From Candidatus Omnitrophota bacterium (GTDB lineage: Bacteria > Omnitrophota > Gorgyraeia > S143-82), in the NCBI GenBank assembly GCA_027034965.1, contig JALVWL010000169.1, positions 1-34,228 on the forward strand: a DNA stretch of 34,228 nt, given 5' to 3'. Below are positions 3,150 to 33,493 of the stretch, in pieces (within the stretch, counting starts at the first letter, position 1; the number at the start of each line of letters is the position of its first letter). The notes under the pieces are model-generated. The model was not told the origin of the DNA. It searched no databases and saw nothing but the letters and a program-made list of their open reading frames with translations. Made by a program: the position numbers and the translations under genes.

Positions 3150-3158
3150 AATCCCAAA

Positions 3159-4330: not shown

Positions 4331-4376
4331 ATGCAATACCCTTTCAGTATCTTCTATATCATCATCTCGACTTACA

Positions 4377-4600
4377 CATTAAACCCGGATTATCCCGGAT
4401 TATGCATTAAAATCCTTCATCTTCCATCACTTGGTTAATCAAACATCTCTTTTCTTATCTAAAAATAAGCATGAAGAATGGAGCATGGAGAATGAAGGAA
4501 ATTTTTCATTAAGAAGGAAAAATATCCTAGTAAATAAAAATCCTTCATGCTCCCTTCTTCCTCCTCCATTCTCAAAACTTGAGTTGTGGTTTTTAGTTTT
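4377..4600. repeat. Intergenic repeat module, copy A (hairpin-forming, built from heptamer repeats)
   Basis: Copy A is collinear with 33494-33692. They share a 14-mer ccggattatgcatt (4395-4408) and an 81-nt core 4471-4551 that is 77/81 identical to 33572-33652. They also share cattctcaaaactt and gtttttagtt tails. Arms 4467-4499 and 4541-4573 are 24/33 complementary around a 41-nt loop. Confidence 0.9.
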
Positions 4601-5190: not shown

Positions 5191-5754
5191 TCACCTCCTC
5201 AGCAAAAGGCTCAAGACCTCATTCCGTGTCTTCTCGTTCTCTCTAAAGATGCCTCTCACTGCACTTGTAATAACCAGCGAGCCTGGTTTTCTCACTCCCC
5301 TCATACTCATACACAAATGCTCTGCCTCTATTACTACCATAACACCGATCGGTTTCAACCTGTTCTCTATGCTCTCGGCAATCTGGGTGGTCAGCCTTTC
5401 CTGGAGTTGCGGCCTCTTCGAAAACAGTTCTGCAACCTTGATTATCTTGCTTAGGCCAGCAATCCTTCCCCTCCCAGGCAAATAGGCAATGTGTATCTTG
5501 CCCATAAACGGCAAGAGATGGTGCTCACACATCGAATGAAAGGCGATGTCCCTTATGAGCACGACTTCATCATGCCTCTCTTCCAGGGCGACATCCAAAA
5601 CAGAGGCCGCATCAACACCTATACCTGCGAATATCTCCTCAAACATATCCGCCACTCGTTGGGGCGTCTTTAATAACTCTGCCCTGTCAGGGTCCTCTCC
5701 TATTCCCTCCAGGATTAATCGCACTCCTTGTTGTATCTTTTCTTTATCCATCAT
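5191..5754 (-). CDS. folE: GTP cyclohydrolase I
   Basis: This 187-aa protein has TPQRVADMFEEIF, HSMCEHHLLPFMGKIHIAYLP and HLCMSMRGV motifs, which include the FolE zinc-site residues. Confidence 0.92.
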   Translation of the reverse strand: MMDKEKIQQGVRLILEGIGEDPDRAELLKTPQRVADMFEEIFAGIGVDAASVLDVALEERHDEVVLIRDIAFHSMCEHHLLPFMGKIHIAYLPGRGRIAGLSKIIKVAELFSKRPQLQERLTTQIAESIENRLKPIGVMVVIEAEHLCMSMRGVRKPGSLVITSAVRGIFRENEKTRNEVLSLLLRR

Positions 5755-6737
5755 AGTGTCATCATCCCAAGTACAGGCGTAAGTTCTTGTAGGTGCTCAA
5801 CCGTAAAATTATGAACCTCTGGATCCGAAGATAGGAGCCTGCTTTCAGGGAAATTTAACAATTGAATATCGAGGTCCAATCTATCTGCCAAGAATTCCAA
5901 TAATCCCCTTAAATTGGCAGTTCCCCCTGTCAATATCAATTTCTCTGGCATCTCACCAAACTGACTTTCATAGTAGTCTATCGATATATATATCTCATCG
6001 GCGATGTGATTCAACACCCTATTGGCAAGGGTAACCACATCCGCTACTGCACTTTCTCCTTTCTTTATCGTCTCGGCAACATTCATAGCCACATCTAATC
6101 TATCCCGAATAAGGATATCTATATCTACACCACCAATCGCGACTGTCCGAATAAAATTTATCTTATCCTCATCCAGAATCATTATATTGGTAGAGCTCTT
6201 CCCTATATCAACTACACAGATAGGCTTCTCCTCTAGAGGATATACAAGGGATACCAGATTTGCGGTTAATGCAGACTCAAAGGTTATCAATCTCGCCCGA
6301 TAACCTGCATTGTAAATCGCCCTTTCAAACGACATCAAAACCGCTCTATCTATAGCTACCAAAAGAACCGGTGTCTTTACAAGACTTCCTTCATCAAATG
6401 AAACTGCCTCGATAACCGCATCTTTTATGCGGCTAGGGATATACCTGGCCGCCTCAGAGGCCACAACCGCCTCCAGTCTCCTTTTGGGGACATTAGGAAA
6501 ACTGGCATACCTGAACAAAAAATAACTAGAAGGTATGGAAACATTTAAGACCGCGCTTCTTATGTCCAGCTCCCAGAGGGCATCTTTTATCGCAGAAGAG
6601 AGATTCTTAAATATATCTATACCCGCATCATAGGGCACAATAGATACTGCATCTATAATGAATCTACCAGACTTGCGCCTTCCTACCAGCGCCTTTACTG
6701 ATGATGAGCCTATATCCAGGTGCACATTATTCGCCAC
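5751..6737 (-). CDS. PilM-like actin/FtsA-fold protein (type IV pilus assembly PilM family)
   Basis: The N-terminus has DIGSSSVKALVG and the C-terminus has ILTGGTANLRGLLEFLADRL, both typical of PilM. The start is a GTG with an AGGGGGGG Shine-Dalgarno sequence. No pilN/O/P/Q follow it. Confidence 0.6.
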   Translation of the reverse strand: MANNVHLDIGSSSVKALVGRRKSGRFIIDAVSIVPYDAGIDIFKNLSSAIKDALWELDIRSAVLNVSIPSSYFLFRYASFPNVPKRRLEAVVASEAARYIPSRIKDAVIEAVSFDEGSLVKTPVLLVAIDRAVLMSFERAIYNAGYRARLITFESALTANLVSLVYPLEEKPICVVDIGKSSTNIMILDEDKINFIRTVAIGGVDIDILIRDRLDVAMNVAETIKKGESAVADVVTLANRVLNHIADEIYISIDYYESQFGEMPEKLILTGGTANLRGLLEFLADRLDLDIQLLNFPESRLLSSDPEVHNFTVEHLQELTPVLGMMTL

Positions 6738-7665: not shown

Positions 7666-8484
7666 CTACTTTGCCTCACCCTTCTTCCCCTTGTTTTTGA
7701 AGAAGAACCTGAACATATCGGCCCAGGAAAGGTTATCGGAAACCATATTCTTTATCAAAAATCGATACAATTCTTCAGGTGTTACTGCCATCTTCAAATG
7801 ACCGTTTATCGCCCAAGATATCGTCCCCATCTCTTCGGATACAATGATACACAGGGCATCTGTCTCTTCTGAGATACCTATTCCTGCCCTATGCCTTGTC
7901 CCCCTTACATCAGGATGCCTTTCACTGTCTGTCAGTGGAAAGAGACACGCAGAGGCAACTATCCTATCCTCTTTGATAATAACCCCACCATCGTGGAGGG
8001 GACTCCCAGGATAGAATATTGTCTCCAGGAGCTCTGGTGATACAATTGCATCTAATTTTATTCCACTATCGCTATATCCCTTTAATCCTATGCTCTTCTG
8101 TATGGCTATAAGTGCACCCACCTTTTTCTCGGCCAGACGAGTAACCGCTATGGTAATATCCCTTGCCACTCGCTCTATCTCTTTTCTATCGAGGGCAAAT
8201 TTTCCCCAGAAAGGACTCTGCCCAAGGCGAGCCAGCCCCTGACGGAGCTCCGGCTGGAATAAAATGACAAAGACAACAATAGAGATACCGAAGACCTTGC
8301 TTAACAGCCAGTTTAATGTATAAAGCCCCAGCCAATTGGACAATATAAAAAATACTGCCAAAATAACAATGCCGCGAATGACATAGAAGGCACGCGTCCC
8401 TTCGAGAAACTGCATTATCCTATAGAAGAGATACCAAAGGATGCCTATTTCAACAATGGCACGGACTATTGTTATCTTCTCCAT
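7666..8484 (-). CDS. cdaA: Diadenylate cyclase CdaA (membrane-anchored DisA_N/DAC domain)
   Basis: Three N-terminal TM helices are followed by GALIAIQ, PLHDGGVII and RGTRHRAGIGISEETDALCIIVSEE motifs. Confidence 0.88.
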   Translation of the reverse strand: MEKITIVRAIVEIGILWYLFYRIMQFLEGTRAFYVIRGIVILAVFFILSNWLGLYTLNWLLSKVFGISIVVFVILFQPELRQGLARLGQSPFWGKFALDRKEIERVARDITIAVTRLAEKKVGALIAIQKSIGLKGYSDSGIKLDAIVSPELLETIFYPGSPLHDGGVIIKEDRIVASACLFPLTDSERHPDVRGTRHRAGIGISEETDALCIIVSEEMGTISWAINGHLKMAVTPEELYRFLIKNMVSDNLSWADMFRFFFKNKGKKGEAK

Positions 8485-10617: not shown

Positions 10618-11226
10618 CTAAAAGAAAGATTTTACCATATCCCAGGCCACAAAGTCACAAAAAATATCTATATTGAGTTTAATGCGTTCCCAGCCCAATG
10701 GAAGCTTGCTCCATTCAAAACGAGAGGCATACTGTTTCATAGAGGCAATAATGTAAATATCTTCTGGATCATAGGATTTATGGCCACTGCAGATATAGTT
10801 ATTGACATTGACCATAGGATAGAGGGTTGCATCTATTGTTATTCGGAATGGATTTTCTGAATAATCAGAGAGATATCCTATAACTATACCATTGACCCCT
10901 AGTTTATCCCCGACCATAGCTGCCTTTTCTACATCCAGAATAGGGCTATCTTTATCAACAAAACGATAAACTATCTCTGGATGGACAACAAATACCCCCC
11001 TATGGGGTATAAGGTAATCTATAAAGGCCCTGTAGATCTTCTCCCGAACATCGTCGGGAACTGAACTATCTGAACCAAATGGGAGTACAGCGATGTGGGT
11101 AATCTCGTAATTTACATCTGGCGCCGTTGGCAAGGGTAGGGATTGATCCATCTTCTCCCGAACACACCCCCCTAGAATATTGAGACCCAACACACAGATA
11201 ACAAGGACTAGCAGGCGCCTAACCAT
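10618..11226 (-). CDS. Lipoprotein of unknown function, the last gene of the chemosensory cluster
   Basis: The signal peptide has a lipobox (LNILGG-C). An IAVLPFGSDS segment is reminiscent of LpoB/FlgO/TolB-N-like lipoproteins. The start overlaps the cheY stop by 8 nt. Confidence 0.5.
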   Translation of the reverse strand: MVRRLLVLVICVLGLNILGGCVREKMDQSLPLPTAPDVNYEITHIAVLPFGSDSSVPDDVREKIYRAFIDYLIPHRGVFVVHPEIVYRFVDKDSPILDVEKAAMVGDKLGVNGIVIGYLSDYSENPFRITIDATLYPMVNVNNYICSGHKSYDPEDIYIIASMKQYASRFEWSKLPLGWERIKLNIDIFCDFVAWDMVKSFF

Positions 11227-11587
11227 TCAATACCTTTTCTATTTTCTCTTTCAAGATATCTGGGGTAAAAGGTTTCACTATATAGTCATTAACTCCCAAC
11301 TGTAAGGCTTCCATGACCTCATTTTTCTCTGCCTCTGTAGTTACCATAATAATGGGAACCGTACCGAATTTGTCAGATGCCCGTATAGACTTCACCAGAG
11401 TGATACCGTCCATCTCAGGCATATTCCAGTCAGTGAGGACGAGGATAATATCTCCTTCCTTTAGTTTTGTAAGGGCATCTATACCATTTTCAGCTTCAAT
11501 CACCTCTGAATACCCTATCTTTTCCAGGGTATTTTTTATTATTCTCCTAATTGTTGCGGAATCATCTACTACTAATATCTTTGGCAT
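11219..11587 (-). CDS. cheY: Single-domain response regulator CheY
   Basis: This 122-aa protein has ILVVDDS, the phospho-acceptor context LVLTDWNMPEMDG and DYIVKPF. Confidence 0.88.
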   Translation of the reverse strand: MPKILVVDDSATIRRIIKNTLEKIGYSEVIEAENGIDALTKLKEGDIILVLTDWNMPEMDGITLVKSIRASDKFGTVPIIMVTTEAEKNEVMEALQLGVNDYIVKPFTPDILKEKIEKVLNG

Positions 11588-12437
11588 AATCTCTAACCTC
11601 CGTTATCCTGACTCCAAAATTTTCCCCCACTGTAACCACCTGTGCCCTGGCTATCACCCTGTCTTTCATTGTAACATCCACTGGTTGAGAAATGTATTGA
11701 GGAAATTCAATAACCGCCCCTGGGCCTAACTCCCACAAATCAGAAAACAACATCTTCTTACGGGCTAATCTAACCCGCACCTCTGCCATTATATCAGGAA
11801 CCTTAATCAAATCATCGCTTTTTTTCTTCTCTTCCTTTGACTCCTGTTTTGCCTTCTCTTCAAATTCCTGCAGCTGGGCATCTATCTCACCCAGCATATC
11901 CGCTGCAAGGCTATTAGCTAGATCAACAGAAAGCATATGCCAAAAAAGGGAATTGACCTGTCCATCATTTAACTTAAATTGCATCTCAACTAACACAAGT
12001 TCATCACCCAATTCATTGGGCGGCTCTTTTGAAACTGCATAAGGAGAGCAGGTTATCTTCTTATTCATAATAAGCATCGCAAGACTATCTCCTATTGCCT
12101 GGGCTACCTGTTCCCCTACTTTCATGAGTCCTTGCTCTAGATCGAGCTCTTGGCCAATAGACTGGGAAAGTCTCTCAATAAGCAGTGCTATATCAGACTC
12201 AGAAAATACTAAAGCAAAACTTTGGTCATAACCTTCATCATACTTGAATAAAAGGAAGACTTTATCCTTGACAGATATAGAATCCAAGGCTAACTTGAAA
12301 TCAGTCTCAACGGCCTTCGGTTTTATCATCTTTACCTGGATTCCAGCCAACTTTTCCAGATTTACAGCCGCTGCACCAAGGGTAATGTTATCTATTTCGC
12401 AGACTGCATCGAGATGTTCTGGCGATACCTTAGGCAT
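11562..12437 (-). CDS. CheC-like phosphatase domain fused to a FliN/SpoA C-terminal domain (FliY-like)
   Basis: The N-terminus matches the CheC active-site pattern D-x3-E-x2-N-x22-P exactly (D10, E14, N17, P40). The C-terminal 70 aa, EVRVRLARKKMLFSDLWELGPGAVIEF...VGENFGVRITEV, is FliN/FliM_C-like. Confidence 0.7.
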   Translation of the reverse strand: MPKVSPEHLDAVCEIDNITLGAAAVNLEKLAGIQVKMIKPKAVETDFKLALDSISVKDKVFLLFKYDEGYDQSFALVFSESDIALLIERLSQSIGQELDLEQGLMKVGEQVAQAIGDSLAMLIMNKKITCSPYAVSKEPPNELGDELVLVEMQFKLNDGQVNSLFWHMLSVDLANSLAADMLGEIDAQLQEFEEKAKQESKEEKKKSDDLIKVPDIMAEVRVRLARKKMLFSDLWELGPGAVIEFPQYISQPVDVTMKDRVIARAQVVTVGENFGVRITEVRDYAKDISSR

Positions 12438-12823
12438 TATTTTTTCCTCTTCAGCTTTCGCAAGACATATTCTAATATATCTTCTTGATGCTTACTGTAT
12501 ATGTCGACAAATTTCACTGCTATACAGTGTTCTCCATTGGTATTTTGCCACTGCCTAACAATCTTTGCCAGAGAGGTAACAGGACCAAATACCTTCCTTA
12601 TAGGTAAGGCCTTATGATAATCCGGAATATTGATTTCTATTTTCAGGACATCTTCTTTATCGAGCTGGCCATCTGCTACAAAGGCCACGCCTCCTGCACT
12701 TATATCTATAATCCTGGCCTCCTTCATTCCACCTATCATAGGTATCTGAAGGACTTGATATCTCAACTTTAATCCTGAGGTTACCCTGCTATACTTGCGT
12801 CTTTCCTGGGCCGATATGGACAC
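12437..12823 (-). CDS. Stand-alone PilZ domain protein (predicted c-di-GMP receptor)
   Basis: RxxxR (RKYSR) and DxSxxG (DISAGG) motifs are both present in this 128-aa protein. The start is a GTG 5 nt after GGAGGG, and the stop overlaps the next start (TAATG). Confidence 0.75.
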   Translation of the reverse strand: MSISAQERRKYSRVTSGLKLRYQVLQIPMIGGMKEARIIDISAGGVAFVADGQLDKEDVLKIEINIPDYHKALPIRKVFGPVTSLAKIVRQWQNTNGEHCIAVKFVDIYSKHQEDILEYVLRKLKRKK

Positions 12824-12825
12824 AA

Positions 12826-14736
12826 CTACCCTCCATAGGCTGTTGCCACCCTCCTGACACTATGTGCTGACAATTGCATAATCCCCGCCACATCGAGGAT
12901 CAAACACACCCGCCCATCGCCCATAATAGTCGCACCAGCTATACCTGGAACATTCGTTAAATACCCACCTAGCGATTTGATAACCACCTCCTGCTGACCT
13001 AACAGATCCGAAACAAGTAAGCCAATTCTCTGCTCAACTAATCCTATTATAACAACATACCTCCTGGATGTATCCTCTATTTTTTCTGGCTCACCAAATA
13101 CCTCTTCCAGGCACAATAGAGGGATGACCATATCTCGAATACGCACAACTGCCTGTTGATCTATTGTGTAGATATGGCCTTCTTCCAGGTGGACTATCTC
13201 CTGAACAGAAGCCAGAGGGATAGCATATATATCCTTATTAGAACTCACCATCAAGGCCTGGATAATTGCCAAGGTCAGAGGGAGTTTTATACGCAAGGTA
13301 GTTCCCTTTCCTACCTCTGTATCCATCTCTATAATACCGTTCAGCTTCTCTATATTTGTCTTGACAACATCCATCCCAACGCCCCGTCCAGATATATCGG
13401 TTATCTTCTCAGCTGTTGAAAAACCAGGGGCAAATATTAGATTCAATATATCTCTCTCACCCATATGTTGTAGATCAGATTCCTTTATCAGACCCTTTTC
13501 TATTGCCTTGGCAGCTATCTTTTCTATATCTATCCCCTTACCATCATCCGCCACTTCGATAACTATATGGTCCCCCTCTTGATAAGCAGACAGAATTATA
13601 GTCCCCCGCCTGGGCTTCCCCTTCTTTTCTCTTTCCTCAGGTGCCTCTATCCCATGATCAACCGCATTCCTCAATATATGTATCAGGGGATCTCCAATGT
13701 GCTCAATAACTGATTTATCAAGCTCCGTTTCCTCACCATGGATTATCAAATCAACTTCCTTCTTCATCTCCCTACAGAGGTCTCTTACCATCCTTGGAAA
13801 CTTATTAAATACCCGTTGCACCGGCAACATCCTGGTCTTCATAACAGACAGCTGCATCTCAGTGGTAACAAAACCCAATTGAACCAGAGCATTATTGAAG
13901 GTATCTATCAGGGCAGTATCTGAGACTTCTGCATCTATTTTCTCTGCCAGCTGGCCTAATCTATTCCTAACCAATACAAGCTCCCCAACCAGATTCATCA
14001 AGGCATCCAACCTTTTAACATCTACTCTAATAGTCTCCTCAATAGAATGAGTAGTCACTGGCTTCCTGGGCTGAACTTTAGGAGAGGCCGCTTGCTTCTG
14101 AATCTCCTGGGTCTTTTCCCCTTGAGTCTTAGTTTCAACCTTAGGCGTATCTGCTAGCTTTTCTGCAAGAATATCACTTGATTCCTTTTCTCCTTTGGAA
14201 ATACTATCTGTTGTCTCGGTCTCTTCCTTTGTCTTTTCTCCTGAAGATGTCTCAATATTTTCGGGTTCGGATATTTCTTTCTTCTCCTCATTACTAGTTT
14301 CAGCGGCTACTGTCTCTTTTCTTTCTTCCTTTGATTCAGATATACCAGACTCTCCTCCTTCCTCTCCGGACAATATAGCCTTTAATTTGGCCTCTGTTTC
14401 AGAGGTATCTACTGATCCTGACCCACCTTCTTTGACCTCATCCAAAAGTAATTTTAGTTTATCAACAGATTCAAGAATGACATCCATTATAGTAGGATTG
14501 ACTACCATTTCACCCTTGCGCAGCTTATTTAAGACATCTTCCATATGGTGCGTAAGTTGAGAGATTTGAGTAAAACCAAGGAACCCAGAACTTCCCTTTA
14601 TTGTATGCGCTGCTCTGAAAATCCTATTCAAAAGATCCAAATCGTCAGGCCGCTCCTCGAGGGTAACCAGATCTGAGTCCAGCTGTTCCAGAAGTTCGGC
14701 TGATTCCACCAAAAATTCCTGGATTATTTCATCCAT
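12826..14736 (-). CDS. cheA: Chemotaxis histidine kinase CheA (P1-linker-P3-P4-P5, no recognisable P2)
   Basis: The Hpt site is RAAHTIKGSSGFLG. The HATPase region includes HILRNAVDHGIE and DDGKGID. The C-terminus is CheW-like. A roughly 120-aa E/K/S/T-rich linker replaces P2. Confidence 0.9.
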   Translation of the reverse strand: MDEIIQEFLVESAELLEQLDSDLVTLEERPDDLDLLNRIFRAAHTIKGSSGFLGFTQISQLTHHMEDVLNKLRKGEMVVNPTIMDVILESVDKLKLLLDEVKEGGSGSVDTSETEAKLKAILSGEEGGESGISESKEERKETVAAETSNEEKKEISEPENIETSSGEKTKEETETTDSISKGEKESSDILAEKLADTPKVETKTQGEKTQEIQKQAASPKVQPRKPVTTHSIEETIRVDVKRLDALMNLVGELVLVRNRLGQLAEKIDAEVSDTALIDTFNNALVQLGFVTTEMQLSVMKTRMLPVQRVFNKFPRMVRDLCREMKKEVDLIIHGEETELDKSVIEHIGDPLIHILRNAVDHGIEAPEEREKKGKPRRGTIILSAYQEGDHIVIEVADDGKGIDIEKIAAKAIEKGLIKESDLQHMGERDILNLIFAPGFSTAEKITDISGRGVGMDVVKTNIEKLNGIIEMDTEVGKGTTLRIKLPLTLAIIQALMVSSNKDIYAIPLASVQEIVHLEEGHIYTIDQQAVVRIRDMVIPLLCLEEVFGEPEKIEDTSRRYVVIIGLVEQRIGLLVSDLLGQQEVVIKSLGGYLTNVPGIAGATIMGDGRVCLILDVAGIMQLSAHSVRRVATAYGG

Positions 14737-14748
14737 AGTTTATACCCC

Positions 14749-15123
14749 CTATTGGTCTTTGGCGCCCAATAAACTCCCTATCTTATACAATATCAACGAA
14801 GGCGGTGCAGGTTTCACCAAATAGACATTTGCACCTGCCTCAAATCCCCTTTTCTTATCTTCATCACTGCCCTCTGTCGTGAGCATAACTATAGGAATAT
14901 CTGTATAAAGCGGATCCTGACGAATGGTGCGAATGAGCTCCAGACCATTCATCCTTGGCATATTCAGATCAGCAATAATCAAGTCTATATCATTCTGAGC
15001 AAGTTTTTCCAAAGCATCCACCCCATCTACTGCCTCAACTGTCTCATAGTCTTCCTTCTTGAGAATATTTATTATCAGTTTCCTAACAGTAGATGAATCG
15101 TCTACTACTAATATCCTTGGCAT
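14749..15123 (-). CDS. Single-domain response regulator (CheY-like)
   Basis: This 124-aa protein has ILVVDDSS, LIIADLNMPRMNG and YLVKPA. Confidence 0.85.
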   Translation of the reverse strand: MPRILVVDDSSTVRKLIINILKKEDYETVEAVDGVDALEKLAQNDIDLIIADLNMPRMNGLELIRTIRQDPLYTDIPIVMLTTEGSDEDKKRGFEAGANVYLVKPAPPSLILYKIGSLLGAKDQ

Positions 15124-15135
15124 AACAGTCCTCCT

Positions 15136-15981
15136 TTACTCCTTTTTATATGCCAATGCCCCTGGGAAATGCACTATCTTAAATGCCCTGGTTATATCAT
15201 GTAAAGACTCAGAGTGGCCTATTATCAAATAACCATTCGGTCGCAACATATCATAAAAATAATTGACAACCTTCTTTTTGACAGGTGTGTCGAAATAAAT
15301 CATAACATTCCTGCAAAATATAACATCCTTCTTGGTAATCCTCCTCATCAAAGTATCATTAGTAAGATTAAGATGATAAAAACGCACCATCTTCTTTATC
15401 TCATCTTTGATGCGAAAATTATCCCCCTCCTTCACAAAATACTTATCCAAATAGGTAGGAGGAACATTCCTCAACGTATAACTATTATAAACACCTTCCC
15501 TTGCCTGAGATAGGGCAGCCTCGCTCAAGTCACCTGCCTCAATCATAACCTTCCAGTCCGGAGCCTTAGACTGAATAAACTCATTGCACACCATTGCAAG
15601 CGTATAAGGTTCTTCACCTGTAGAACAACCAGCACTCAATATGGTAATGGTCTTAAATGTCTGGCGATCAGGAAGAGTGGCTAACTCTGGCAATATATTA
15701 TCTTTAAAGGCATTAATTTGGGGCATATTTCTGAAAAAACTGGTTTCGTTTATGGTTATGGCATTGAAAAGATACTTAAGCTCTGTTTGATACTCCTTAG
15801 AGTACATTAAAAAATACGCATATTCATTGAAATCTCTAAAGCCCCTTTCTTTTATACGCTCTAATATCTTTGTCTCCATCAAATATTTTTTTTGATCTGA
15901 AAAGAAAATACCACTCTTCTCATATATAAAATCCCTTAAAGACTTAAATGTCTTATCATCCATCTTTTCTACCGTAGTCAC
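15136..15981 (-). CDS. cheR: Chemotaxis protein methyltransferase CheR
   Basis: The N-terminal helical domain (FKSLRDFIYEKSGIFF) is followed by ETSFFRN, ILSAGCSTGEEPY and IFCRNVMIYF. The start is a GTG 6 nt after AGGAG. Confidence 0.9.
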   Translation of the reverse strand: MTTVEKMDDKTFKSLRDFIYEKSGIFFSDQKKYLMETKILERIKERGFRDFNEYAYFLMYSKEYQTELKYLFNAITINETSFFRNMPQINAFKDNILPELATLPDRQTFKTITILSAGCSTGEEPYTLAMVCNEFIQSKAPDWKVMIEAGDLSEAALSQAREGVYNSYTLRNVPPTYLDKYFVKEGDNFRIKDEIKKMVRFYHLNLTNDTLMRRITKKDVIFCRNVMIYFDTPVKKKVVNYFYDMLRPNGYLIIGHSESLHDITRAFKIVHFPGALAYKKE

Positions 15982-15983
15982 TG

Positions 15984-16883
15984 TTAACTCCTGGTTATAT
16001 TAATAAATTCTCGCACCTTCTCTATCTCATCATCCAATTCATAAGTGAACTTTTCTATATCTATGTTGGCTAATTCTGGCTTTACCTTTTGGATCAAAAG
16101 CCAAGAAATATCCTCACTAAATACAAATCCCTTATTATCGCCACCAAACCCAATCTCCTTTGCCTTACAAAATAGATCCGCTACCCTAACTATACCAACT
16201 GTAAAGGGGGCCTTTTCTGCCTGTTCTGGTGTGTGGTGATAGGCAATTGCCTCCTGAATAGATATAGGCAGGTTCCACATCTGAGCCAGGACCAACCCAA
16301 CCTCTGCATGTGTAAAACCAAGGGCCTCTTTTTCCACATCGTAGATAGACCGATCTTCTTCTCTTGCCTTATTAAATATGTCAGTAAAGACATCATGGCG
16401 TTTCTCATCCAAAACAATCTTGCCTATATCGTGCAACAAGCCTCCGACAAAGACCTCCCCACCAAGCATAGGTTCGCCAAGTCTTTTCGCCAAAATCCTT
16501 GCGAAATGTCCACAGGCTGCAGAGTGTATCCAGAATTTCTCTCTGTCAAATGTCTCCTTTCCTGGTATATCAGGGAAGGCAGAGAAGACTGAAACACTCA
16601 TAATAAGATGACTGATCTCCCCCATTCCAAGGACGACCAGAGCCAGCTCAAGGGAATTGACCTGTTGTTTAAGACCATAAAAGGCAGAATTAGCCACCTT
16701 TAAGACTTTGGAAGTCAAAGACGGATCACCTTCTAATATCCGGGAGATATCCCGCACCGAGGCCCTGGAAGACATGGTAAGATCCATCACCTGCGCTGCT
16801 ACATGCGGCAGTGTTGGCAAAGAATCCAGATCTCCAATCAGGGATACAATTTTTTCTTTTATCTGATCATCTATTTCAGGCAT
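15984..16883 (-). CDS. HDOD domain protein
   Basis: Motifs seen are LPTLPHVAAQVMDL, DPSLTSKVLKVANSAFYG, LHDIGKIVL and FTHAEVG. Confidence 0.8.
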   Translation of the reverse strand: MPEIDDQIKEKIVSLIGDLDSLPTLPHVAAQVMDLTMSSRASVRDISRILEGDPSLTSKVLKVANSAFYGLKQQVNSLELALVVLGMGEISHLIMSVSVFSAFPDIPGKETFDREKFWIHSAACGHFARILAKRLGEPMLGGEVFVGGLLHDIGKIVLDEKRHDVFTDIFNKAREEDRSIYDVEKEALGFTHAEVGLVLAQMWNLPISIQEAIAYHHTPEQAEKAPFTVGIVRVADLFCKAKEIGFGGDNKGFVFSEDISWLLIQKVKPELANIDIEKFTYELDDEIEKVREFINITRS

Positions 16884-17952
16884 TGGTCCTTTCCTTTATC
16901 TTTTCAATCGCTTCTCTTGTCAGGTTAGCCTGATTCTCATCTTCTGAATCCACAAACTTAGCAAGTAAATCTAGAGCCTTTGCTGTCCCTATCTCCCTCA
17001 AACCCTCTATAGCTGAGTTTATAATCATCGGCTCTGAAATCGTTTGAAGGATATCCAAGAGGACCCACTCTGCTTCGGGGCCAAGTTTAGATACAATATT
17101 AACCGCCCTGTAGGCATTCCACCTGTCGTCGGAATATTTAATGTAGGCCAACAAATATACTGCAAATTTTTTTCTTACAGCCTCATCATCCGGGATTGTC
17201 TCTACCCTCAAACCAAAATCAATTATATCTGAATAGACATCTGAGAGTTTTTGAGAACTCATAAATTCAAAGACATACATAATATCGTAGATAAATATAT
17301 CATCGCCAAATTTTGATATACCATCTAACAAGGCCTTTAAGACAACATCATTTTTTTCTCTATACAAGGCCTTCCTCAGAACCTCTTTTGCAGAATCAAG
17401 CCCAATCTTGGTCAACGCATCTATTATAGAAAACCTGACCCAGGTATCAGTCTCTCTTTCTAGTAATTCTGCAAGGACAGAAACCGATTTTTCATTGACA
17501 ATAGAGCCTATGCCCATAACAGCTGAATTCCTTACATTTATCTCTTCATCATATAAGGCTTTGGATAGATATTCCAGGGCCTTCTCTGTCCCAAATTTTC
17601 CAATAATATCACATACAAAAAGACGCACATCTTTATCCTCATCTTCTAGATATGCCCCTATTAGATCAACATAATCCCGACCTATTTTCTCCAGTACCTC
17701 TATAGCCGCATTACGGACATTGGCATTCTCTTCCCTTAGTAATGGCATCAACTTCTCTACTACTAGTTTATCTGGCCTGGAAACCAGCAATTCTATGACT
17801 GCTTCTTGAAGTGCCTTGTTATCTACATATAGGATAGAAATCAATGTATCGATTATATCTGTTATAGGTAAAGAACCAGCAACCCTTATAGCCTCTCTCT
17901 TTTCCTCTATGCTCCCGGACTCTACCTGGGCCTTCCACATCTCAATATCCAT
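16876..17952 (-). CDS. HEAT-repeat protein (PBS-lyase HEAT-like repeats)
   Basis: The sequence repeats D/N-x-x-VR-x-x-A units (ENANVRNAAIEVLEKIG, DKDVRLFVCDIIGKFG, EINVRNSAVMGIGSI, DTWVRFSIIDALTKIG). Confidence 0.7.
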   Translation of the reverse strand: MDIEMWKAQVESGSIEEKREAIRVAGSLPITDIIDTLISILYVDNKALQEAVIELLVSRPDKLVVEKLMPLLREENANVRNAAIEVLEKIGRDYVDLIGAYLEDEDKDVRLFVCDIIGKFGTEKALEYLSKALYDEEINVRNSAVMGIGSIVNEKSVSVLAELLERETDTWVRFSIIDALTKIGLDSAKEVLRKALYREKNDVVLKALLDGISKFGDDIFIYDIMYVFEFMSSQKLSDVYSDIIDFGLRVETIPDDEAVRKKFAVYLLAYIKYSDDRWNAYRAVNIVSKLGPEAEWVLLDILQTISEPMIINSAIEGLREIGTAKALDLLAKFVDSEDENQANLTREAIEKIKERTNA

Positions 17953-17963
17953 ATCAATCCTCC

Positions 17964-19055
17964 TTAGATCATCCTCATTATCTCTGCCGCAATATTATCA
18001 ACAGAAACAATCCTATCCGCTAGACCTTCATCAACTACCGCCTTAGGCATTCCATAAACAACCGAACTGCCTTCATCCTGGGCGATTACCTTACCTCCAA
18101 ACTGCTTAACCCTTCTTACTCCTTCAAGGCCATCTTTACCCATACCAGTAAGGATAACCGCTAACGTTTTATTTTTGAATATATCTGCTGCAGAAGAAAT
18201 CGTAATATCTATGCTCGGATGATAAATGGTATCTTTCGGTTCTTCACTCAAAACAGCTGTAACCATTGAACCAATCTTTTTGAGCTGAAGATGATATGCC
18301 CCTGGGACCACCAATATCTTCCCTCGTTCCAATTTTTCGCCCTGCTCGGCTTCCTTTACCAATGGCCCCCCCAGAGAGTTTAGACGATTGGCCAATGGAC
18401 CAGTAAATGCAGGTGGCATATGTTGTATAATAACCCCAGGGATGGGAAGATTCCTAGGGAGCCTCCCTATTACCTTTTGAAGGGCAGTAGGACCGCCCGT
18501 AGAGACACCTATAACCAATATATCAAAGAGACCTCTCGATGTAACTGGTGGTGCTGATTTTGGTTCTGTTACAACTGTGCTAGACGGAGAAGATTCTGGT
18601 CTAGAAGATGAACTGTAGACAAAGGCCGAAGGCTTAGCAGAAAAAGCTGTTTTTTTGGCGGCTATCGCCTTTATCTTTTCTAGAAGTTGCTGTTCGATCT
18701 TCTCGAAATTTATTCCAACACTGCCTGATTGATAAAGTTCTTTAGGGATAAAGTCCACTGCCCCTAGAGAAAGGGCCTCTATAGTCACAGCAGCACCTTC
18801 TCTTGTCAATGAACTGACCATAATCACTGGCCGGGGATATTCCCTCATAATAACCTTCAATGCCTCAATACCATTCATCTTCGGCATCTCAACATCCAGG
18901 GTAACCAGATCAGGGTCAAACTGTTTTATTTTATCAATAGCATCCAATCCATCATGAGCAAATCCTACAACCTTAATATTAGGATCTTTCTCCAGGATCC
19001 TCGAAATAGCCTTACAGATAAAGACAGAATCATCTACTATCAAGACCTTGACCAT
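17964..19055 (-). CDS. cheB: Chemotaxis response regulator protein-glutamate methylesterase CheB
   Basis: The REC domain (VLIVDDS, LVTLDVEMPKMNG) is joined by a linker to the methylesterase domain (IGVSTGGP, IIQHMP, TGMGKDG). Confidence 0.92.
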   Translation of the reverse strand: MVKVLIVDDSVFICKAISRILEKDPNIKVVGFAHDGLDAIDKIKQFDPDLVTLDVEMPKMNGIEALKVIMREYPRPVIMVSSLTREGAAVTIEALSLGAVDFIPKELYQSGSVGINFEKIEQQLLEKIKAIAAKKTAFSAKPSAFVYSSSSRPESSPSSTVVTEPKSAPPVTSRGLFDILVIGVSTGGPTALQKVIGRLPRNLPIPGVIIQHMPPAFTGPLANRLNSLGGPLVKEAEQGEKLERGKILVVPGAYHLQLKKIGSMVTAVLSEEPKDTIYHPSIDITISSAADIFKNKTLAVILTGMGKDGLEGVRRVKQFGGKVIAQDEGSSVVYGMPKAVVDEGLADRIVSVDNIAAEIMRMI

Positions 19056-19066
19056 TACATTCCTCC

Positions 19067-20224
19067 TTAGAACTTAAACCCAGAAATAATTTGCAATAAA
19101 TCATTAGATAAACGGCTCAAGTTTTCAGCTGCATCTTTGGTTTGAAGAACACCATCCTGTACCTGCGCAGCAATTGCCTTAACTATCTCCATCGTCCTGG
19201 ATATTTCTTCCACTGCCATTGTTTCTCTATCTGCAGAGACCTTAATTGGTTCCATTAATCTTTGTGTATCCTCAGCCCTGGCACTCATATCCTTTATGAT
19301 CTTCCCCGTCTCTTCTATGTTCTGTTCAGTCTCAGACACCCTTTCTTTTGCATGATCCACCATATTTATAACCTCATCACTCCGCCGCTGCAAAGAGGAT
19401 ATCATTTCTGCAACTTCCTTTGTAGCCTCCGCTGTCTTTTCTGCTAACTGCCTAACCTCATCCGCAACCACTGCAAAGCCTCTACCGTATTCACCTGCCC
19501 TAGCCGCCTCAATTGCAGCGTTCAAAGCAAGTAAATTTGTCTGATTTGCAATATCATCTATTGTCTCTATAATCTGGCCTATTTGTTGAGAACTATCTCT
19601 GAGTTGCTCTGCTGTACTTGCAGCAGCTGTAACCTCCCCAGAGAGGGCCTTCATTTTACCAATACTCTCTTCTATTTTATTCACACCCTCGCGGGCTATC
19701 TCAAGAGATTTATCTGCCGCATCACTTGCCTGATTAGCATTTTGCGAGACTTCCAGAATAATAGAGGTAATCTCTCCTATTTGCACCGCTACCTCTGATG
19801 TCTCCTTGGTCTGCGTATCTGCACCTCTACTAATCTCTTCAGAGGTCTGAGAAAGCTGGGCAGAGGCAGCTGCAAGCCGGGATATATTTGTTTGAATAGT
19901 TCCCAATAAATCCCTCAGCTGTCCTGTAACTTTATTATAAGCAATTGCCAATTCCCCTAATTCATCTTTAGATACATTGGAAATTTCCTTCCTCAAATCC
20001 CCCTCACCCATAGCAAGCAAAGAAGTCTGAATAATCTTTAAGGCATTGACTATCGTATGAGAAAGTATATACCCAAAGATATAGGCTACCACCATATTAA
20101 CCGTGAGATTAACCACCAATGCCATATTTTGGTTATGTATAAACTTATGGGCTATCCAACCTACAATGGCAGCAAATAGGACATTGCCCATTATTCCTAA
20201 ATGAATTTTGGTTACTATCTTCAT
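19067..20224 (-). CDS. Methyl-accepting chemotaxis protein: two TM helices joined by about 6 aa, then HAMP and the signalling domain
   Basis: The conserved hairpin tip is [38 protein letters not shown]. Candidate methylation sites are TSEEIS and AVEEIS. No periplasmic sensor domain is present. Confidence 0.9.
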
Positions 20225-20271
20225 ATAGTCCCCCCTCTGGCAGAAAATATTCCCCTTAATACAGTCGGGTA

Positions 20272-20769
20272 TCAGAAACTATTTAACATAGTTTTTTCTT
20301 CTTCCGATAGGAACTTCTCTATGTCTATTATTATAATTAAGCGTTCCTCCAGTTTTCCAACGCCCTTTATGCACTGCGCATCAATAGAAGTAGAAATCAT
20401 TGGAGGAGTTGGATCTATCGTATCCTTTGGCAGGCGTAAGACCTCAGAAACACTATCGACAATCAATCCAACAGTTCTTCCATCTATATCTACAACTATA
20501 ATCCTAGTCTCTTTTGTATTGTTAGGTTGAAGTCCAAACCTCTTCCGCAGGTCTAATACAGGAATCACTTTACCTCTCAAGTTCACAACACCTTCTACAA
20601 AATAGGCACATTTCGGTACATGTGTAATCTCCATCATCCTGTTAATCTCTTGAACTTTCAAAATGTCAATCCCATATTCTTCCTCACCCAGAGTAAAACT
20701 TACTAGCTGTACAATCTCGGTATCTTTATGAACTTGTTCCTTTGTCCCGGAATTATTCATCTCTGTCAT
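20272..20769 (-). CDS. cheW: Chemotaxis coupling protein CheW
   Basis: This 165-aa protein has [21 protein letters not shown] and [18 protein letters not shown]. Confidence 0.9.
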
Positions 20770-20789
20770 CTCTCCCCTCCCAAGGTTTT

Positions 20790-21662
20790 TTAGCCCCTTA
20801 TAATATCCAAAAAGTCTCTCATCGAATCCAGCTGGGAAATACCTTCGGATATGATGTAATCCATTGTCATCAAATCCAGATTCAACATAGAAAACACATT
20901 TTTATGTAAGGGTGGAATAAAATTATCCCCTCCGAATCCAAGTCCAATCAAACGGGTCAAAAAATCAGCCACCGCAACAATACCCACGCTCTGCAAAAAC
21001 TTTCCATTATAGTTTATCACATCGTGATGCCAGGTTACCACATCTATCATATCATAAGGCAGATTCCATTTCTCAAAGACAATACTTCCAACAATAGAAT
21101 GGTCAAAACCTATTATCTCCAATTCTGCCTCTCTCAGAGGGATATCCTTTTCCTTCTGTAAAGGGAGTACCTTTTCATAAAATTCCTTGCCATAGTAATC
21201 CAAGATTAATTTACCGACATCATGTAAGAGTCCAAAGATAAAATGCTCTTCTACATTGGGAAGCCTTAAGTGTTTGGCCAATGCCTTTGATATAACCCCA
21301 ACACCTATAGAATGCTCCCAAAACCCATTTACGTCAAAACCAATATTATTCTGTCCATTCTTAAAGACCTCAAGGACAGAGGCAGTAAATATAGCTGCCT
21401 TGAGACGATTGAATCCAAGGATAACCAGGGCATGGTCTATCGTCTTTATTTGTCTGGGAAATCCATAAAAGGCAGAATTGACTATCCGAAGTATACGTGA
21501 AACCAGCGCCTGATCCTGGCTTATCACTTTTGCGACCTCCCTAGCAGAAACCCTTGGTTCTCCCAGCATAGATATTACCTTAGAAAGGACCTTGGGAAGT
21601 GTTGGGACATTTACTACCTGTTCGAACTTCTGCTTTATATGTACGGGTATTGTTCTCGCCAT
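20790..21662 (-). CDS. HDOD domain protein (second copy)
   Basis: Motifs seen are VPTLPKVLSKVISML, DQALVSRILRIVNSAFYG and LLHDVGKLIL. I chose the ATG at 21662 (TAGGAGT 8 nt upstream) instead of the TTG at 21689. Confidence 0.8.
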   Translation of the reverse strand: MARTIPVHIKQKFEQVVNVPTLPKVLSKVISMLGEPRVSAREVAKVISQDQALVSRILRIVNSAFYGFPRQIKTIDHALVILGFNRLKAAIFTASVLEVFKNGQNNIGFDVNGFWEHSIGVGVISKALAKHLRLPNVEEHFIFGLLHDVGKLILDYYGKEFYEKVLPLQKEKDIPLREAELEIIGFDHSIVGSIVFEKWNLPYDMIDVVTWHHDVINYNGKFLQSVGIVAVADFLTRLIGLGFGGDNFIPPLHKNVFSMLNLDLMTMDYIISEGISQLDSMRDFLDIIRG

Positions 21663-21672
21663 AAATAAACTC

Positions 21673-22005
21673 CTAGGACTTAGTTGCAAGAAAGCTACGG
21701 TACTTTATTCCCAATAATTTGAATTGTTCTGTCTCCTTAGGAGAGAAGCTGCAATACTTAAAGGCCTTTTCAATGGCCCTTTTAATCTCATCCGAGGCTA
21801 TCTCAGCCTCCTTTTTCAATACATTAAAGAATATATCATCACCCTCTACCACAACCCAAGAAACATCCATAGCTCTAATATTTTCTATATCCTCACGAGC
21901 CAGTTCCTTGCCTTTTGGAAACATAACCGCACCATCGTCAGTAACAACATCCGCGGCAAGTCTCATCCCCTCTTCTAACCATCTAGGCGCTATTCTAGAT
22001 CCCAT
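21673..22005 (-). CDS. Hypothetical 110-aa protein, the first gene of the chemosensory cluster
   Basis: GAAGGAGA lies 4 nt upstream of the ATG. The N-terminal segment LEEGMRLAADVVTDDGAVMFPKGKELAREDIENIRAMDV resembles the repeat module found N-terminal to some HD-GYP regulators. That resemblance is from memory and not verified. Confidence 0.45.
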   Translation of the reverse strand: MGSRIAPRWLEEGMRLAADVVTDDGAVMFPKGKELAREDIENIRAMDVSWVVVEGDDIFFNVLKKEAEIASDEIKRAIEKAFKYCSFSPKETEQFKLLGIKYRSFLATKS

Positions 22006-22027: not shown

Positions 22028-23763
22028 TCATCCCTTCAATAAATCTTTATAAACTTTGATATAATGCCTCGCACTACTGCCCCAAGAGAAGTCGCTTGTC
22101 ATTGCGGCTTTTACCTTCTTTTGCCAATCCCGGGGTCTCTCTAAGAATTCCTCCAGAGCAGTATCCAATATAGATAATAAATCATTATAATCCAATCTGT
22201 CAAACAGGAAACCGCTATCTGACGAAATCGTATCCGCAAGCCCTCCTGTCTTGCGAGCAACCGGTATTGTTCCATACCTCATCCCTATCATCTGGGAAAG
22301 CCCGCAAGGTTCAAACCTGGAAGGAATTAATATCATATCTCCCGCCGCATAAAGTCTATGGGCCAGGGGTTCATTAAACTCCAAGATGCCTTTAAACAGT
22401 TTAGGATGTTGAACAGATAACTCCTCTAGCATCCTTTCATAATGTCTATCACCCCTGCCCAGGATAACACATACAACACCACCACGCCTGAGCAGTGTCT
22501 CAATTACCGGCACAGCCACATCTATACCTTTCTGCTCCACCAGACGAGATATCATAATGATAAGGGCGGTATTGTTATTTCCCTCGATCCCCAAGTCTTC
22601 AAACAATTTTAATTTATTTACCACCTTTCCCTTCAAGTGCATCCTTGAGCCTTTCATACCATAATGCTGGTAAATAAACTCATCCCGCCAAGGATTCCAA
22701 TAATCATAATCTATGCCGTTTAAAATACCGTTCAGTTTATGTCTATTCGCCCTCAATACCCCATCAAGGCCATAACCGTACTCAGGCATCTGTATCTCCT
22801 TTGCATAGGTAGGGCTAACCGTCAGAACAGAGTCGGAATATATGATGCCTGCCTTCATACAGTTTATCTTCCCATAGAACTCAATCCCCTGGTATGTAAA
22901 ATAACTCCAGTCAAGGCCCAGTATATAGAACTTATCCACAGGGAAGAGTCCCTGATAGGCAAGATTATGGATAGAAAATACTGTTTTTGTATTCTCAAAA
23001 AACTCATCTTCTGAATAAAAGGCCTGTTTAAATACCGGCAACAGGCCTGTCTGCCAATCATTGGTATGTATGATATCTGCCCTGAAGTCTATCCTCTTTA
23101 ATAACTCTAGGGCAATCTTAGAAAAGAACGAAAACCTCTCCAGGTTATCTTCGTAGTTCCCATAAACCTCATCCCTATCAAAAAATACAGGACAATCAAC
23201 CAGATAATAATCTATCCCACCCAGCTCTATCTTCTTGATAGAGGCCTCTATCCAGTTTGCACCAACAGGAGAGCTTATTTTTATACCTGTATCAGATACA
23301 GTGTATCCCTTACTATAAATATCCCTATAGGCCGGCAGGATAACTATGGGATCCACACCAAGCTGTAACAATGCCTTCGGCAGGCTACCCACGACATCTG
23401 CCAGGCCGCCTACCTTCACTAACGGCATCGCCTCAGGAGAAACAAAGGCCACTCTAATCTTTTTCCTGGCAGAACCCTTACGGGTCGCCTTTCTGCCATT
23501 ATCTTTATTTGGGCCCTTTTTATTTCTGGCAACCTTTTTGGCCTTCTCCTTTAGAGTACTGCTCCCTGTCTTCGAAGTCGTGGTCTTCTTCACCCGTCCC
23601 TTTGCTCTATTAGATGTCTTTTGTGCCTTATTTGTCTTTGCTTTCGAGGACTTCGAAACCGAATTCTTTTTCGTCACAGACTTCTTAGCACGCCCTGACG
23701 CAGTGCTGCTTTTCTTTGTATCAACAGCACCACTCTTTTTGCTTTTCTTCTTCCTTTCCGTCA

Positions 23764-23764
<1 letters not shown>
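22028..23764 (-). CDS. glgA: Glycogen synthase GlgA with a roughly 100-aa Lys/Ser/Thr-rich N-terminal extension
   Basis: The core starts at IRVAFVSPEAMPLVKVGGLADV and contains the GT5/GT1 motifs (PSRFEPCGLSQM). The GTG start at 23764 is preceded by GGAGGG at 6 nt and overlaps the atpD TAG by 1 nt. Confidence 0.85.
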
Positions 23765-33471: not shown

Positions 33472-33493
33472 AAGCACTCCCTATTTTCTAGAC

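Follow-up and report, generated by a model that had tools for sequence, protein, structure and literature searches.

What does a chemotaxis (Che) operon control when half of its genes are not canonical Che components? This question is raised by a 34,228-nucleotide stretch of DNA from a Candidatus Omnitrophota bacterium (GenBank assembly GCA_027034965.1, contig JALVWL010000169.1, positions 1 to 34,228), which is called the window in the following and always meant at its full length. Within this coding-dense window, 14 consecutive open reading frames (ORFs) on the minus strand, running from 22005 down to 10618, encode in this order (g1 to g14) a 110-aa protein, an HDOD protein, CheW, a methyl-accepting chemotaxis protein (MCP), CheB, a HEAT-repeat protein, a second HDOD protein, CheR, a single-domain receiver (REC), CheA, a PilZ protein, a CheC-FliN fusion, CheY, and a lipoprotein. 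An earlier annotation of this DNA (the sequence-only reading) had proposed precisely these 14 genes, all of which were recovered with the same coordinates and order, and had counted half of them as non-canonical, in agreement with the seven accessory genes that accompany a full signaling core. As to the question itself, we see about an even chance that the operon encodes a flagellar-type chemotaxis pathway with cyclic diguanylate (c-di-GMP) input, the output of which is a motor switch encoded elsewhere in the genome.

The signaling core

Domains were assigned by comparing Pfam scores with the Pfam cut-offs, with NCBIfam as a second library. All five of CheA, CheW, MCP, CheR, and CheB score far above their cut-offs, and the operon, as judged by its component content, represents a Che pathway with methylation-dependent adaptation. 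CheW (g3, 20272..20769, 165 aa) is matched with 141 bits, CheR (g8, 15136..15981, 281 aa) with 199 bits (CheR_N, 45 bits), and CheB (g5, 17964..19055, 363 aa) with 200 bits for CheB_methylest, preceded by an N-terminal receiver at residues 4–107 (Response_reg, 82.8 bits).

The only receptor of the operon (g4, 19067..20224, 385 aa; MCPsignal 160 bits, HAMP 34 bits) had been described as an MCP without a sensor domain. This is borne out by its N-terminus, because the two hydrophobic segments (approximately residues 3–29 and 34–62) are joined by a loop of only about eight residues and HAMP follows immediately. With the Glu of the hairpin tip at residue 245 and arms of 139 and 140 residues, that is, 20+20 heptads, g4 belongs to receptor class 40H. 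It has neither a C-terminal tail nor a pentapeptide, and the strict methylation-site consensus found no match in g4, which says little.

The kinase CheA (g10, 12826..14736, 636 aa; Hpt, H-kinase_dim, HATPase_c, and CheW domains) consists of P1 with a single Hpt domain, a low-complexity linker, and P3-P4-P5, and lacks both P2 and a REC fusion. It ends after the CheW-like P5, and the receiver family PF00072 is absent from all 16 CheAs of the clade in which the operon occurs (see below). Two single-domain receivers are encoded. The first, g13 (11219..11587, 122 aa; Response_reg 109 bits), is a canonical CheY with the E. coli CheY model PRK10610 as its best NCBIfam match (136 bits), and it retains all of the residues that we take to form the FliM contact in E. 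coli CheY (A90, K92, Y106, and V108). The second CheY paralogue, g9 (14749..15123, 124 aa; 107 bits), displays the phospho-acceptor residues, but carries G, D, and K at positions 90, 92, and 95 (in what we take to be the E. coli CheY numbering), so that the presumed FliM-binding surface is not kept.

A FliY-type protein next to CheY and a canonical PilZ protein

The protein g12 (11562..12437, 291 aa) comprises a CheC-type domain (approximately residues 1–176) followed by a FliN/SpoA domain (approximately residues 205–285; FliMN_C 62.9 bits). The Pfam score for CheC (17.5) lies below the cut-off of 22; the assignment is nevertheless rescued because a profile built from the g12 family matches the CheC-like middle domain of Thermotoga maritima FliY (4hyn, E 2e-11, residues 4–176) as well as CheC itself (1xkr, E 4e-5). 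The same profile detects T. maritima FliN (1o6a) with E 8e-19 over residues 201–282, and the best NCBIfam match of g12 is FliY. By these profile comparisons, the fusion of CheC and FliN in g12 is genuine and makes it a protein of the FliY type. In the first catalytic site of the CheC family (D/S-x3-E-x2-N-x22-P), the residues D10, E14, N17, and P40 are invariant in 12 homologues, and the FliN domain is the best-conserved part of the whole protein. Outside the clade, the nearest full-length relatives are the FliY proteins of flagellated Thermotogota and Bacillota (24–28 % identity). The reading frames of g12 and the downstream cheY gene g13 overlap by 23–26 nt (26 nt in the window, conserved in the related locus L002), which suggests translational coupling of phosphatase and CheY. 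FliY is a CheY-P (phosphorylated CheY) phosphatase and a component of the flagellar switch. While the sequence-only reading had considered the FliN-like protein as an output of the pathway, a CheC-FliN fusion of the FliY type is rather to be seen as a signal terminator or docking module and not as a new output.

Directly upstream, g11 (12437..12823, 128 aa) is a single-domain PilZ protein in which both c-di-GMP motifs are present, RxxxR at R9-R13 (R9-K-Y-S-R13) and DxSxxG at D40-G45 (D40-I-S-A-G-G45). From these motifs, g11 is predicted to bind c-di-GMP as a canonical PilZ receptor; a comparison with the PDB gave nothing significant (best match E 0.09).

HDOD, HEAT, and lipoprotein genes

The sequence-only reading had staked its proposal on the HDOD, PilZ, and HEAT assignments passing the profile thresholds, and all of them do so: the two HDOD proteins reach 201.8 and 204.1 bits (cut-off 22.9), the HEAT protein 126 bits for HEAT_2 (27.7), and PilZ 36.4 bits (22.5). 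HDOD protein 1 (g2, 20790..21689, 299 aa) additionally matches HD (35.8 bits) and, just above the cut-off of 27.6, HDIG (TIGR00277, 29.5); its true start may be an ATG nine codons downstream of the listed TTG. HDOD protein 2 (g7, 15984..16883, 299 aa; HD 41 bits) has PDB matches to the HDOD proteins 3hc1 (E 3e-31), 1vqr (E 2e-11; Cj0248 of Campylobacter jejuni, which we take to be a motility-associated protein), and 3m1t. At only about 31–33 % identity, g2 and g7 are, to judge from their sequences, old paralogues. We know of no demonstrated c-di-GMP activity of HDOD domains, and a literature search for HDOD proteins inside che operons yielded only Pseudomonas transposon screens.

The 110-aa protein g1 (21673..22005; no Pfam match) is always encoded immediately upstream of the first HDOD gene, overlapping or abutting it, and is itself preceded by a GAAGGAG ribosome-binding site. 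In its AlphaFold2 (AF2) model (predicted local distance difference test score, pLDDT, 88.9), the N-terminal part folds into a small beta domain and the C-terminal part into three helices. Residues 5–47 resemble the C-terminus of NosR-family REC/HD-GYP phosphodiesterases (NF053512) with E 3e-5, far below the cut-off of that model. Foldseek pointed to small hybrid-barrel motifs in MoeA and RNA polymerase beta' at E of only about 0.01, and these are not taken as clues to function. A 2114-aa protein with a C-terminal type IX secretion system (T9SS) sorting domain (P0150) matches a 30-residue stretch of g1 (residues 16–45) six times, which suggests that secreted proteins, too, contain the small beta motif of g1 in repeated form; the similarity was read as a shared small structural motif and not as functional homology.

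The HEAT-repeat protein g6 (16876..17952, 358 aa) owes its score to four stretches. HEAT-like relatives adjoin cheR in three other che clusters (L090, L088, and L018; 23–37 % identity over partial lengths), and a weak match to FliG_N (E 0.0085) was dismissed as generic alpha-solenoid resemblance. The HEAT assignment itself stands, but a HEAT-repeat protein in a che cluster is not without precedent, as shown by these three clusters and by OE2401F from Halobacterium, a HEAT_PBS protein that is encoded in the che region and required for motor switching (PMC2666748). A paper on Geobacter che clusters (PMC2577667) was also considered as a prior description, but the word HEAT does not occur in its text, and this architecture is therefore not the one it deals with.

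The last gene, g14 (10618..11226, 202 aa), encodes a lipoprotein with a signal peptide and an LGGC lipobox, for which no significant match was found in Pfam, NCBIfam, or the PDB. An AF2 model built from five sequences (pLDDT 64.6 overall, 65–90 in the core formed by residues 41–160) was compared by Foldseek and retrieved the N-terminal domain of TolB, LpoB, GNA1162, FlgT, PelC, and CsgG (E 1e-5 to 1e-2, TMq 0.33–0.47). On the basis of this model, g14 is predicted to be an exported envelope lipoprotein of the TolB-N/LpoB/PelC/FlgT-like fold, a fold group in which many proteins form rings or bind envelope machines. The proposal that the lipoprotein is an output has to be revised insofar as g14, because it is exported, is not a direct target of cytoplasmic CheY-P.

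Conservation and distribution

The sequence-only reading had called for a search for the 14-gene order in other genomes, and this order indeed recurs in at least five further lineages (L002, L004/L005, L006/L007/L012/L093, L008, and L009/L010). Wherever contigs are long enough, all 14 genes are present with the starch/glycogen synthase gene glgA directly upstream. The latter applies to every relative with a recovered upstream flank (L002, L004, L006, L008, and L012; glgA at positions 1–460), while the downstream genes vary: the window has argD, L002 has TatD, ThiF, and Mrp genes, and L004 and L006 have recJ, radical-SAM, and pilin-like genes at this place. Identities within the clade are highest for g9 (88–100 %), CheY g13 (85–99 %), and CheW (81–99 %), followed by CheR (76–97 %), CheA (72–89 %), HDOD g7 (66–96 %), HEAT (55–91 %), HDOD g2 (54–95 %), and PilZ (43–89 %), and they are lowest for g12 (approximately 37–90 %), g1 (33–76 %), and g14 (26–96 %). 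Thus, the core Che proteins stay 72–99 % identical while the accessory genes diverge to 26–57 %, with the order unchanged.

The proteins of the window, as exact matches, are found on a single NCBI/Logan contig. A genome scan with the FliY-like family identified metagenome-assembled genomes from hydrothermal samples that are labeled Candidatus Omnitrophota as the nearest relatives, with clade contigs in WGAY01 (90 % identical) as well as in JAMOOT01 and WGBD01. The same operon has also been deposited as "Thermococcaceae archaeon" (L009, JAMOPD010000271.1) and as "uncultured Planctomycetia bacterium" (L012, CAYXYY010000034.1); both labels are probably binning or labeling errors. The families are remarkably small, with 13 members for g12 and five relatives for g14 among 5.8 billion (clustered) proteins and six representatives for g1 among 1.84 billion proteins, and the metagenome collection of the Joint Genome Institute (JGI) contributes only three loci. 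The operon is rare but strictly conserved in a small clade of hydrothermal Candidatus Omnitrophota.

Kinase lineage and chemosensory class

The operon was compared with known chemosensory classes by a similarity ranking of CheA and by the published markers of class F3. Outside the clade, the nearest CheAs are about 50 % identical and comprise the CheA-REC proteins of Helicobacter, Hydrogenimonas, and Deferribacter together with unfused metagenomic CheAs. Over the P3-P5 core, the CheAs of the clade score 705–808 bits and the outside relatives 445–509 bits (P0066, 509; Deferribacter, 483; Hydrogenimonas, 476; Helicobacter, 466), while T. maritima (369–372 bits) and E. coli (315 bits) follow at a distance. 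This ranking places the kinase near those of F3 systems of Campylobacterota, of Deferribacter, and of unclassified clusters that contain CheV or CheZ. The CheA core of locus L171, in which cheA-cheW is followed by a 663-aa CheW-REC-CheZ protein (a CheV-CheZ fusion, 2433–4424), is the closest outside relative.

Three further clusters share individual elements with the operon. Locus L090 (1913–13880) encodes CheA, an 813-aa HEAT protein, CheR, REC, REC, a 110-aa protein, HDOD, a histidine kinase, a FapA-family protein, and REC; its 110-aa protein can be aligned with g1 (23 % identity, E 0.002), and, as with g1, there is a slight overlap with the HDOD gene downstream. The CheA of this locus, at 765 aa, apparently has a duplicated Hpt region. 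L088/L089 carry SpoIIE/STAS genes, a 636-aa HEAT-like protein, REC, REC, CheR, a g9-like REC, a g13-like CheY, CheZ, CheA, and CheB, with the g9-like REC (46 %) of L088 lying beside the g13-like CheY (58 %). L018 from Carboxydothermus shows a REC-HEAT-CheR arrangement. Judged by these sequences, the HEAT gene beside cheR, the pair of CheY paralogues, and the 110-aa/HDOD couple extend beyond the Omnitrophota clade. The second HDOD gene, PilZ, the lipoprotein, and a FliY-type phosphatase where relatives have CheZ are, in turn, additions of the clade, as is the fusion of everything in one block with MCP and CheW.

Three markers define class F3: cheV, cheA, and cheW share one operon (cheVAW), CheA bears an additional receiver, and CheB has none. 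The cognate receptors of F3 are of classes 40H and 28H, and the class is regarded as exclusive to Campylobacterota (PMC9321776). In the motors associated with it, FliY is found alongside FliM and FliN, and FlgX, a protein of the PilZ family, and FlgP/FlgQ disks are present as well (PMC9321776). The 40H receptor g4 is of an F3 receptor type, which is, however, not unique to F3. Assignments to two other classes were rejected. For F1 (Bacillus/Thermotoga), the receptor would have to be 44H rather than 40H, CheD is missing from the operon, and the T. maritima CheA is more distant. For the Tfp class (Pil-Chp), the single Hpt domain and missing REC of g10 stand against a multi-Hpt ChpA with a receiver, and there is no PilG/PilH arrangement. 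No description of the exact 14-gene architecture was found in the literature.

Proposed mechanism

From the observed domain identities, motifs, receptor class, gene-order conservation, and kinase affinities, we infer a pathway in which the interactions, the roles of HDOD, HEAT, and g1, and the flagellar output are all proposals. The membrane-anchored, sensor-less 40H receptor g4 would form a signaling complex with CheW (g3) and CheA (g10) and report a membrane-proximal or partner-delivered cue, with CheR (g8) and the receiver-bearing CheB (g5) providing adaptation. CheA would phosphorylate both g13, as the output CheY, and g9, which may serve as a phosphate sink or second branch. The FliY-type protein g12, docked at the switch complex via its FliN/SpoA domain, would dephosphorylate CheY-P with its one intact catalytic site, and the PilZ protein g11 would feed the c-di-GMP level into the same output step. 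The HEAT protein g6 would act, throughout the lineage, as an auxiliary Che protein in association with CheR. The HDOD proteins g2 (paired with g1) and g7 would likewise be auxiliary and may give input to the sensor-less receptor in the way CetB does to CetA. The lipoprotein g14 would be an envelope component co-expressed with the pathway.

Which output?

A flagellar switch appears to be the most economical output because g12 descends from FliY and the FliN domain is its most conserved part, and further because the fliY-cheY pairing mirrors that of Bacillus subtilis and the kinase lineage is tied to flagellar systems. In the fla/che operon of B. subtilis, fliY lies directly before cheY, in the same adjacency as g12 and g13.

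Several observations weigh against a flagellar output. Neither the 34-kb window nor the 10-kb surroundings of the operon in any relative include a flagellar structural gene (six genomes), and two phylum-wide studies of Omnitrophota stress type IVa and Tad pili with no mention of flagella or chemotaxis. In g12, the second catalytic site is degenerate (the Glu is kept, the Asn replaced by Ala or Ser), and the CheC-like domain begins already at residue 3–4, leaving no separate N-terminal extension; one active site can suffice, as in CheX. Finally, the affinity to F3 does not extend to the gene arrangement: a CheV (CheW-REC) is missing and six genes lie between cheW and cheA, g10 has no Response_reg match, and the CheB g5 does carry a receiver (82.8 bits). 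Because all three defining markers fail, the operon is not filed as F3. Together with the outcome of the literature search, this upholds the earlier proposal that the architecture does not correspond to a described Che class.

Possible, albeit on the unlikely side, is that the same pathway acts on a non-flagellar output, namely surface motility or attachment by type IV pili or another envelope machine, in which the FliN/SpoA domain would serve as an oligomerizing dock and PilZ and the lipoprotein would be part of the machine. Omnitrophota commonly encode type IVa pili, the main surveys of the phylum are silent on flagella, and clusters of small prepilin N_methyl genes with a PilN-like gene lie 7–10 kb downstream of the operon in two lineages (L004/L005, 17734–20882; L006, 17527–20864). 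The window itself holds a PilM-family actin-like gene (5751–6737, minus strand; PilM_2 84 bits) 4 kb downstream, which qualifies one half of the earlier statement that neither flagellar nor pilus structural genes are present, the flagellar half of which stands. The tiny and clade-specific families of g12, g14, and g1 would also be expected with a lineage-specific partner. However, the operon shows no hallmarks of a pilus-controlling Che system (a multi-Hpt ChpA-type kinase with REC, PilG/PilH), the pilus genes do not adjoin it and are absent near the operon in L002, and the FliN domain of g12 is highly similar to flagellar FliN (E 8e-19). A more specific version, which we regard as unlikely, would be a non-flagellar, as yet undescribed and clade-specific output machine of nanosized Omnitrophota that is formed or regulated by the CheC-FliN protein, the c-di-GMP-binding PilZ, and the exported ring-type lipoprotein and that serves, for instance, to attach to host cells or to move on them, with the two HDOD proteins (one with its 110-aa partner) as cytoplasmic sensors for the receptor.

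Decidedly improbable, in our view, is a system of the "alternative cellular function" type, in which a membrane or envelope cue would be relayed to c-di-GMP-dependent polysaccharide or glycogen metabolism or to biofilm formation, with HDOD and PilZ as the output and glgA as part of the unit. What makes it attractive is that glgA is conserved directly upstream (22 nt in the window) in every relative with a recovered flank while the downstream genes vary, although this adjacency may be inherited synteny. An exopolysaccharide chain-length/tyrosine-kinase-like/AAA_22 trio is encoded at 30622–33477, the fold predicted for g14 is common to the exopolymer-export lipoproteins PelC and CsgG, the receptor has no ligand-binding domain, and PilZ keeps its c-di-GMP motifs. 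Yet, GGDEF, EAL, and HD-GYP enzymes are missing from the operon, as is any output response regulator that bears an effector domain. Both receivers are of the single-domain CheY type, phosphatases of the FliY type typically belong to motility pathways, and c-di-GMP activity of HDOD is not known to us.

The last alternative, namely that the accessory genes are unrelated neighbors in a compact genome and the canonical che genes alone form the functional unit, draws on the tight one-strand packing of the window with its equally close unrelated flanks and on promoter-like sites not enriched over shuffled sequence, but is effectively excluded, given that the accessory genes are interleaved among the che genes and not appended to them, that their order is identical at 26–57 % identity while the genes downstream of the operon differ, and that unrelated che clusters likewise contain the 110-aa/HDOD pair and a HEAT gene beside cheR. 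Because they are interleaved and keep their positions despite strong divergence, the accessory genes are, from the comparison of sequences, best regarded as part of the unit rather than as chance neighbors.

Boundaries of the operon and neighboring genes

Distances between the genes of the operon range from −26 to +47 nt, and the sequence-only reading had concluded from such small gaps that the 14 genes form one transcription unit. This conclusion cannot be maintained on spacing. The flanks are as tight, with glgA (22028..23764, minus strand; Glyco_transf_5 284 bits) ending 22 nt upstream of g1 and argD starting 45 nt downstream of g14, and since all genes moreover lie on the minus strand, spacing is unable to delimit the operon. 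Upstream, atpD abuts glgA. Promoter-like sites are not enriched in the window (37 as compared to 40.0 ± 7.6 in shuffled sequence), and the best sigma-70-like match of the region (22203–22174, 11/12 positions) falls inside the 3' end of glgA. The promoter and terminator scan detected no minus-strand terminator-like site at either end of the operon and does not delimit it. An Rfam scan of the window returned two tRNAs only and no c-di-GMP riboswitch.

All ORFs that could be assigned to a family are on the minus strand, and the GC skew stays negative along the whole window (cumulative −7.6 over 34 kb), which is consistent with a long co-oriented stretch of one replichore in a compact genome. Read from its GTG start, glgA begins with an N-terminal low-complexity stretch of about 100 residues, rich in Lys, Ser, and Thr, before the GT5 domain, and its true start may lie further downstream. 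The trio at 30622–33477 is located upstream of the ATP synthase operon and comprises a Wzz+GNVR protein (398 aa), an AAA_31 ParA/MinD-like protein (290 aa), and an AAA_22 ExeA-like ATPase (293 aa); it resembles an exopolysaccharide chain-length/tyrosine-kinase-like/XrtA-associated ATPase set. The PilM-family gene stands alone, flanked by a radical-SAM gene and folE and not by pilN/O/P/Q, and the pilin-like clusters of L004/L005 and L006 are separated from the che operon by recJ, radical-SAM, and TPR genes. A CdaA-type diadenylate cyclase gene (7666–8484, minus strand; DAC domain and CdaA_N) lies 2 kb downstream of the operon, so that c-di-AMP signaling is encoded near c-di-GMP-linked genes.

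Implications

Inside this Che operon, two HDOD proteins are found together with a small partner protein that is new and with a canonical PilZ protein. The HDOD domain is very common in bacterial signaling and has, to our knowledge, no established biochemical function. Two HDOD paralogues fixed in a che operon, one of them with a dedicated small partner, offer a concrete setting in which this function could be approached via binding to MCP, CheA, CheR, or CheY; if the reading as a non-flagellar machine were true, this would be the first defined signaling role for the domain. Encoded as they are in a single block, presumably with coupled translation, the FliY-type phosphatase, the canonical PilZ protein, and CheY would furthermore be a compact natural case of c-di-GMP and phosphorelay signaling converging on a single output. 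Omnitrophota are known almost entirely from genomes and are thought to be largely host-dependent, and chemotactic navigation by one clade, along with the organelle involved, would inform the picture of their lifestyle. This also raises the question of what role a FliY-type protein plays in a phylum that is not known for flagella. Beyond the phylum, the affinity of CheA to F3-type systems may help to trace the origin of the chemotaxis and motor system of Campylobacterota.

Comparison with known systems

Individual parts of the operon have counterparts in well-known systems. The receptor g4 has the same sensor-less topology, two transmembrane segments followed by HAMP, as CetA of C. jejuni, a membrane-anchored MCP without a sensing domain that obtains its signal from the separately encoded cytoplasmic protein CetB. 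In contrast to CetA/CetB, the Omnitrophota operon encodes no PAS-domain partner, and an HDOD protein in this role is purely conjectural. With the che clusters that contain a HEAT auxiliary (Halobacterium with OE2401F as well as L090, L088/L089, and L018), the operon shares a HEAT or HEAT_PBS gene inside the che region. It differs from L088/L089 in that these have CheZ instead of a CheC-type phosphatase and neither HDOD nor PilZ, and from Halobacterium in that the archaeal system acts through CheF and the archaellum.

As in FliY of T. maritima and B. subtilis (4hyn, 1o6a), a CheC-like domain is followed by FliN in g12, with the first catalytic motif intact. Unlike these proteins, from which it differs at 24–28 % identity, g12 is shorter (291 aa as compared to approximately 343–380 aa), lacks the N-terminal extension, has a degenerate second site, and is encoded in a che operon without flagellar genes nearby. 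In keeping its binding motifs, the PilZ protein g11 resembles YcgR, MotI/DgrA, MapZ, and PlzC, c-di-GMP receptors that act on motor or Che proteins; unlike the YcgR-type regulators, it is a lone PilZ domain of 128 aa without YcgR-N.

The class that CheA resembles most is the F3 system of Helicobacter pylori and C. jejuni; the operon shares with it the affinity of CheA (approximately 50 % identity, 466–476 bits over P3-P5 for Helicobacter and Hydrogenimonas) and the 40H receptor. The parts associated with F3 are similar as well, namely FliY, FlgX as a member of the PilZ family, disk-forming lipoproteins, and the HDOD protein Cj0248. The genes of F3 are scattered, whereas those of the Omnitrophota operon are joined in a single block, and the host is a member of Omnitrophota rather than Campylobacterota. 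Binding of c-di-GMP is not known for tetrameric PilZ proteins such as FlgX, while g11 keeps the binding motifs. It is possible that the operon represents a sister lineage to the F3 system of Campylobacterota. Summed up, it is reasonable to regard it as an undescribed arrangement of known parts on a recognizable kinase lineage and not as a new kind of system.

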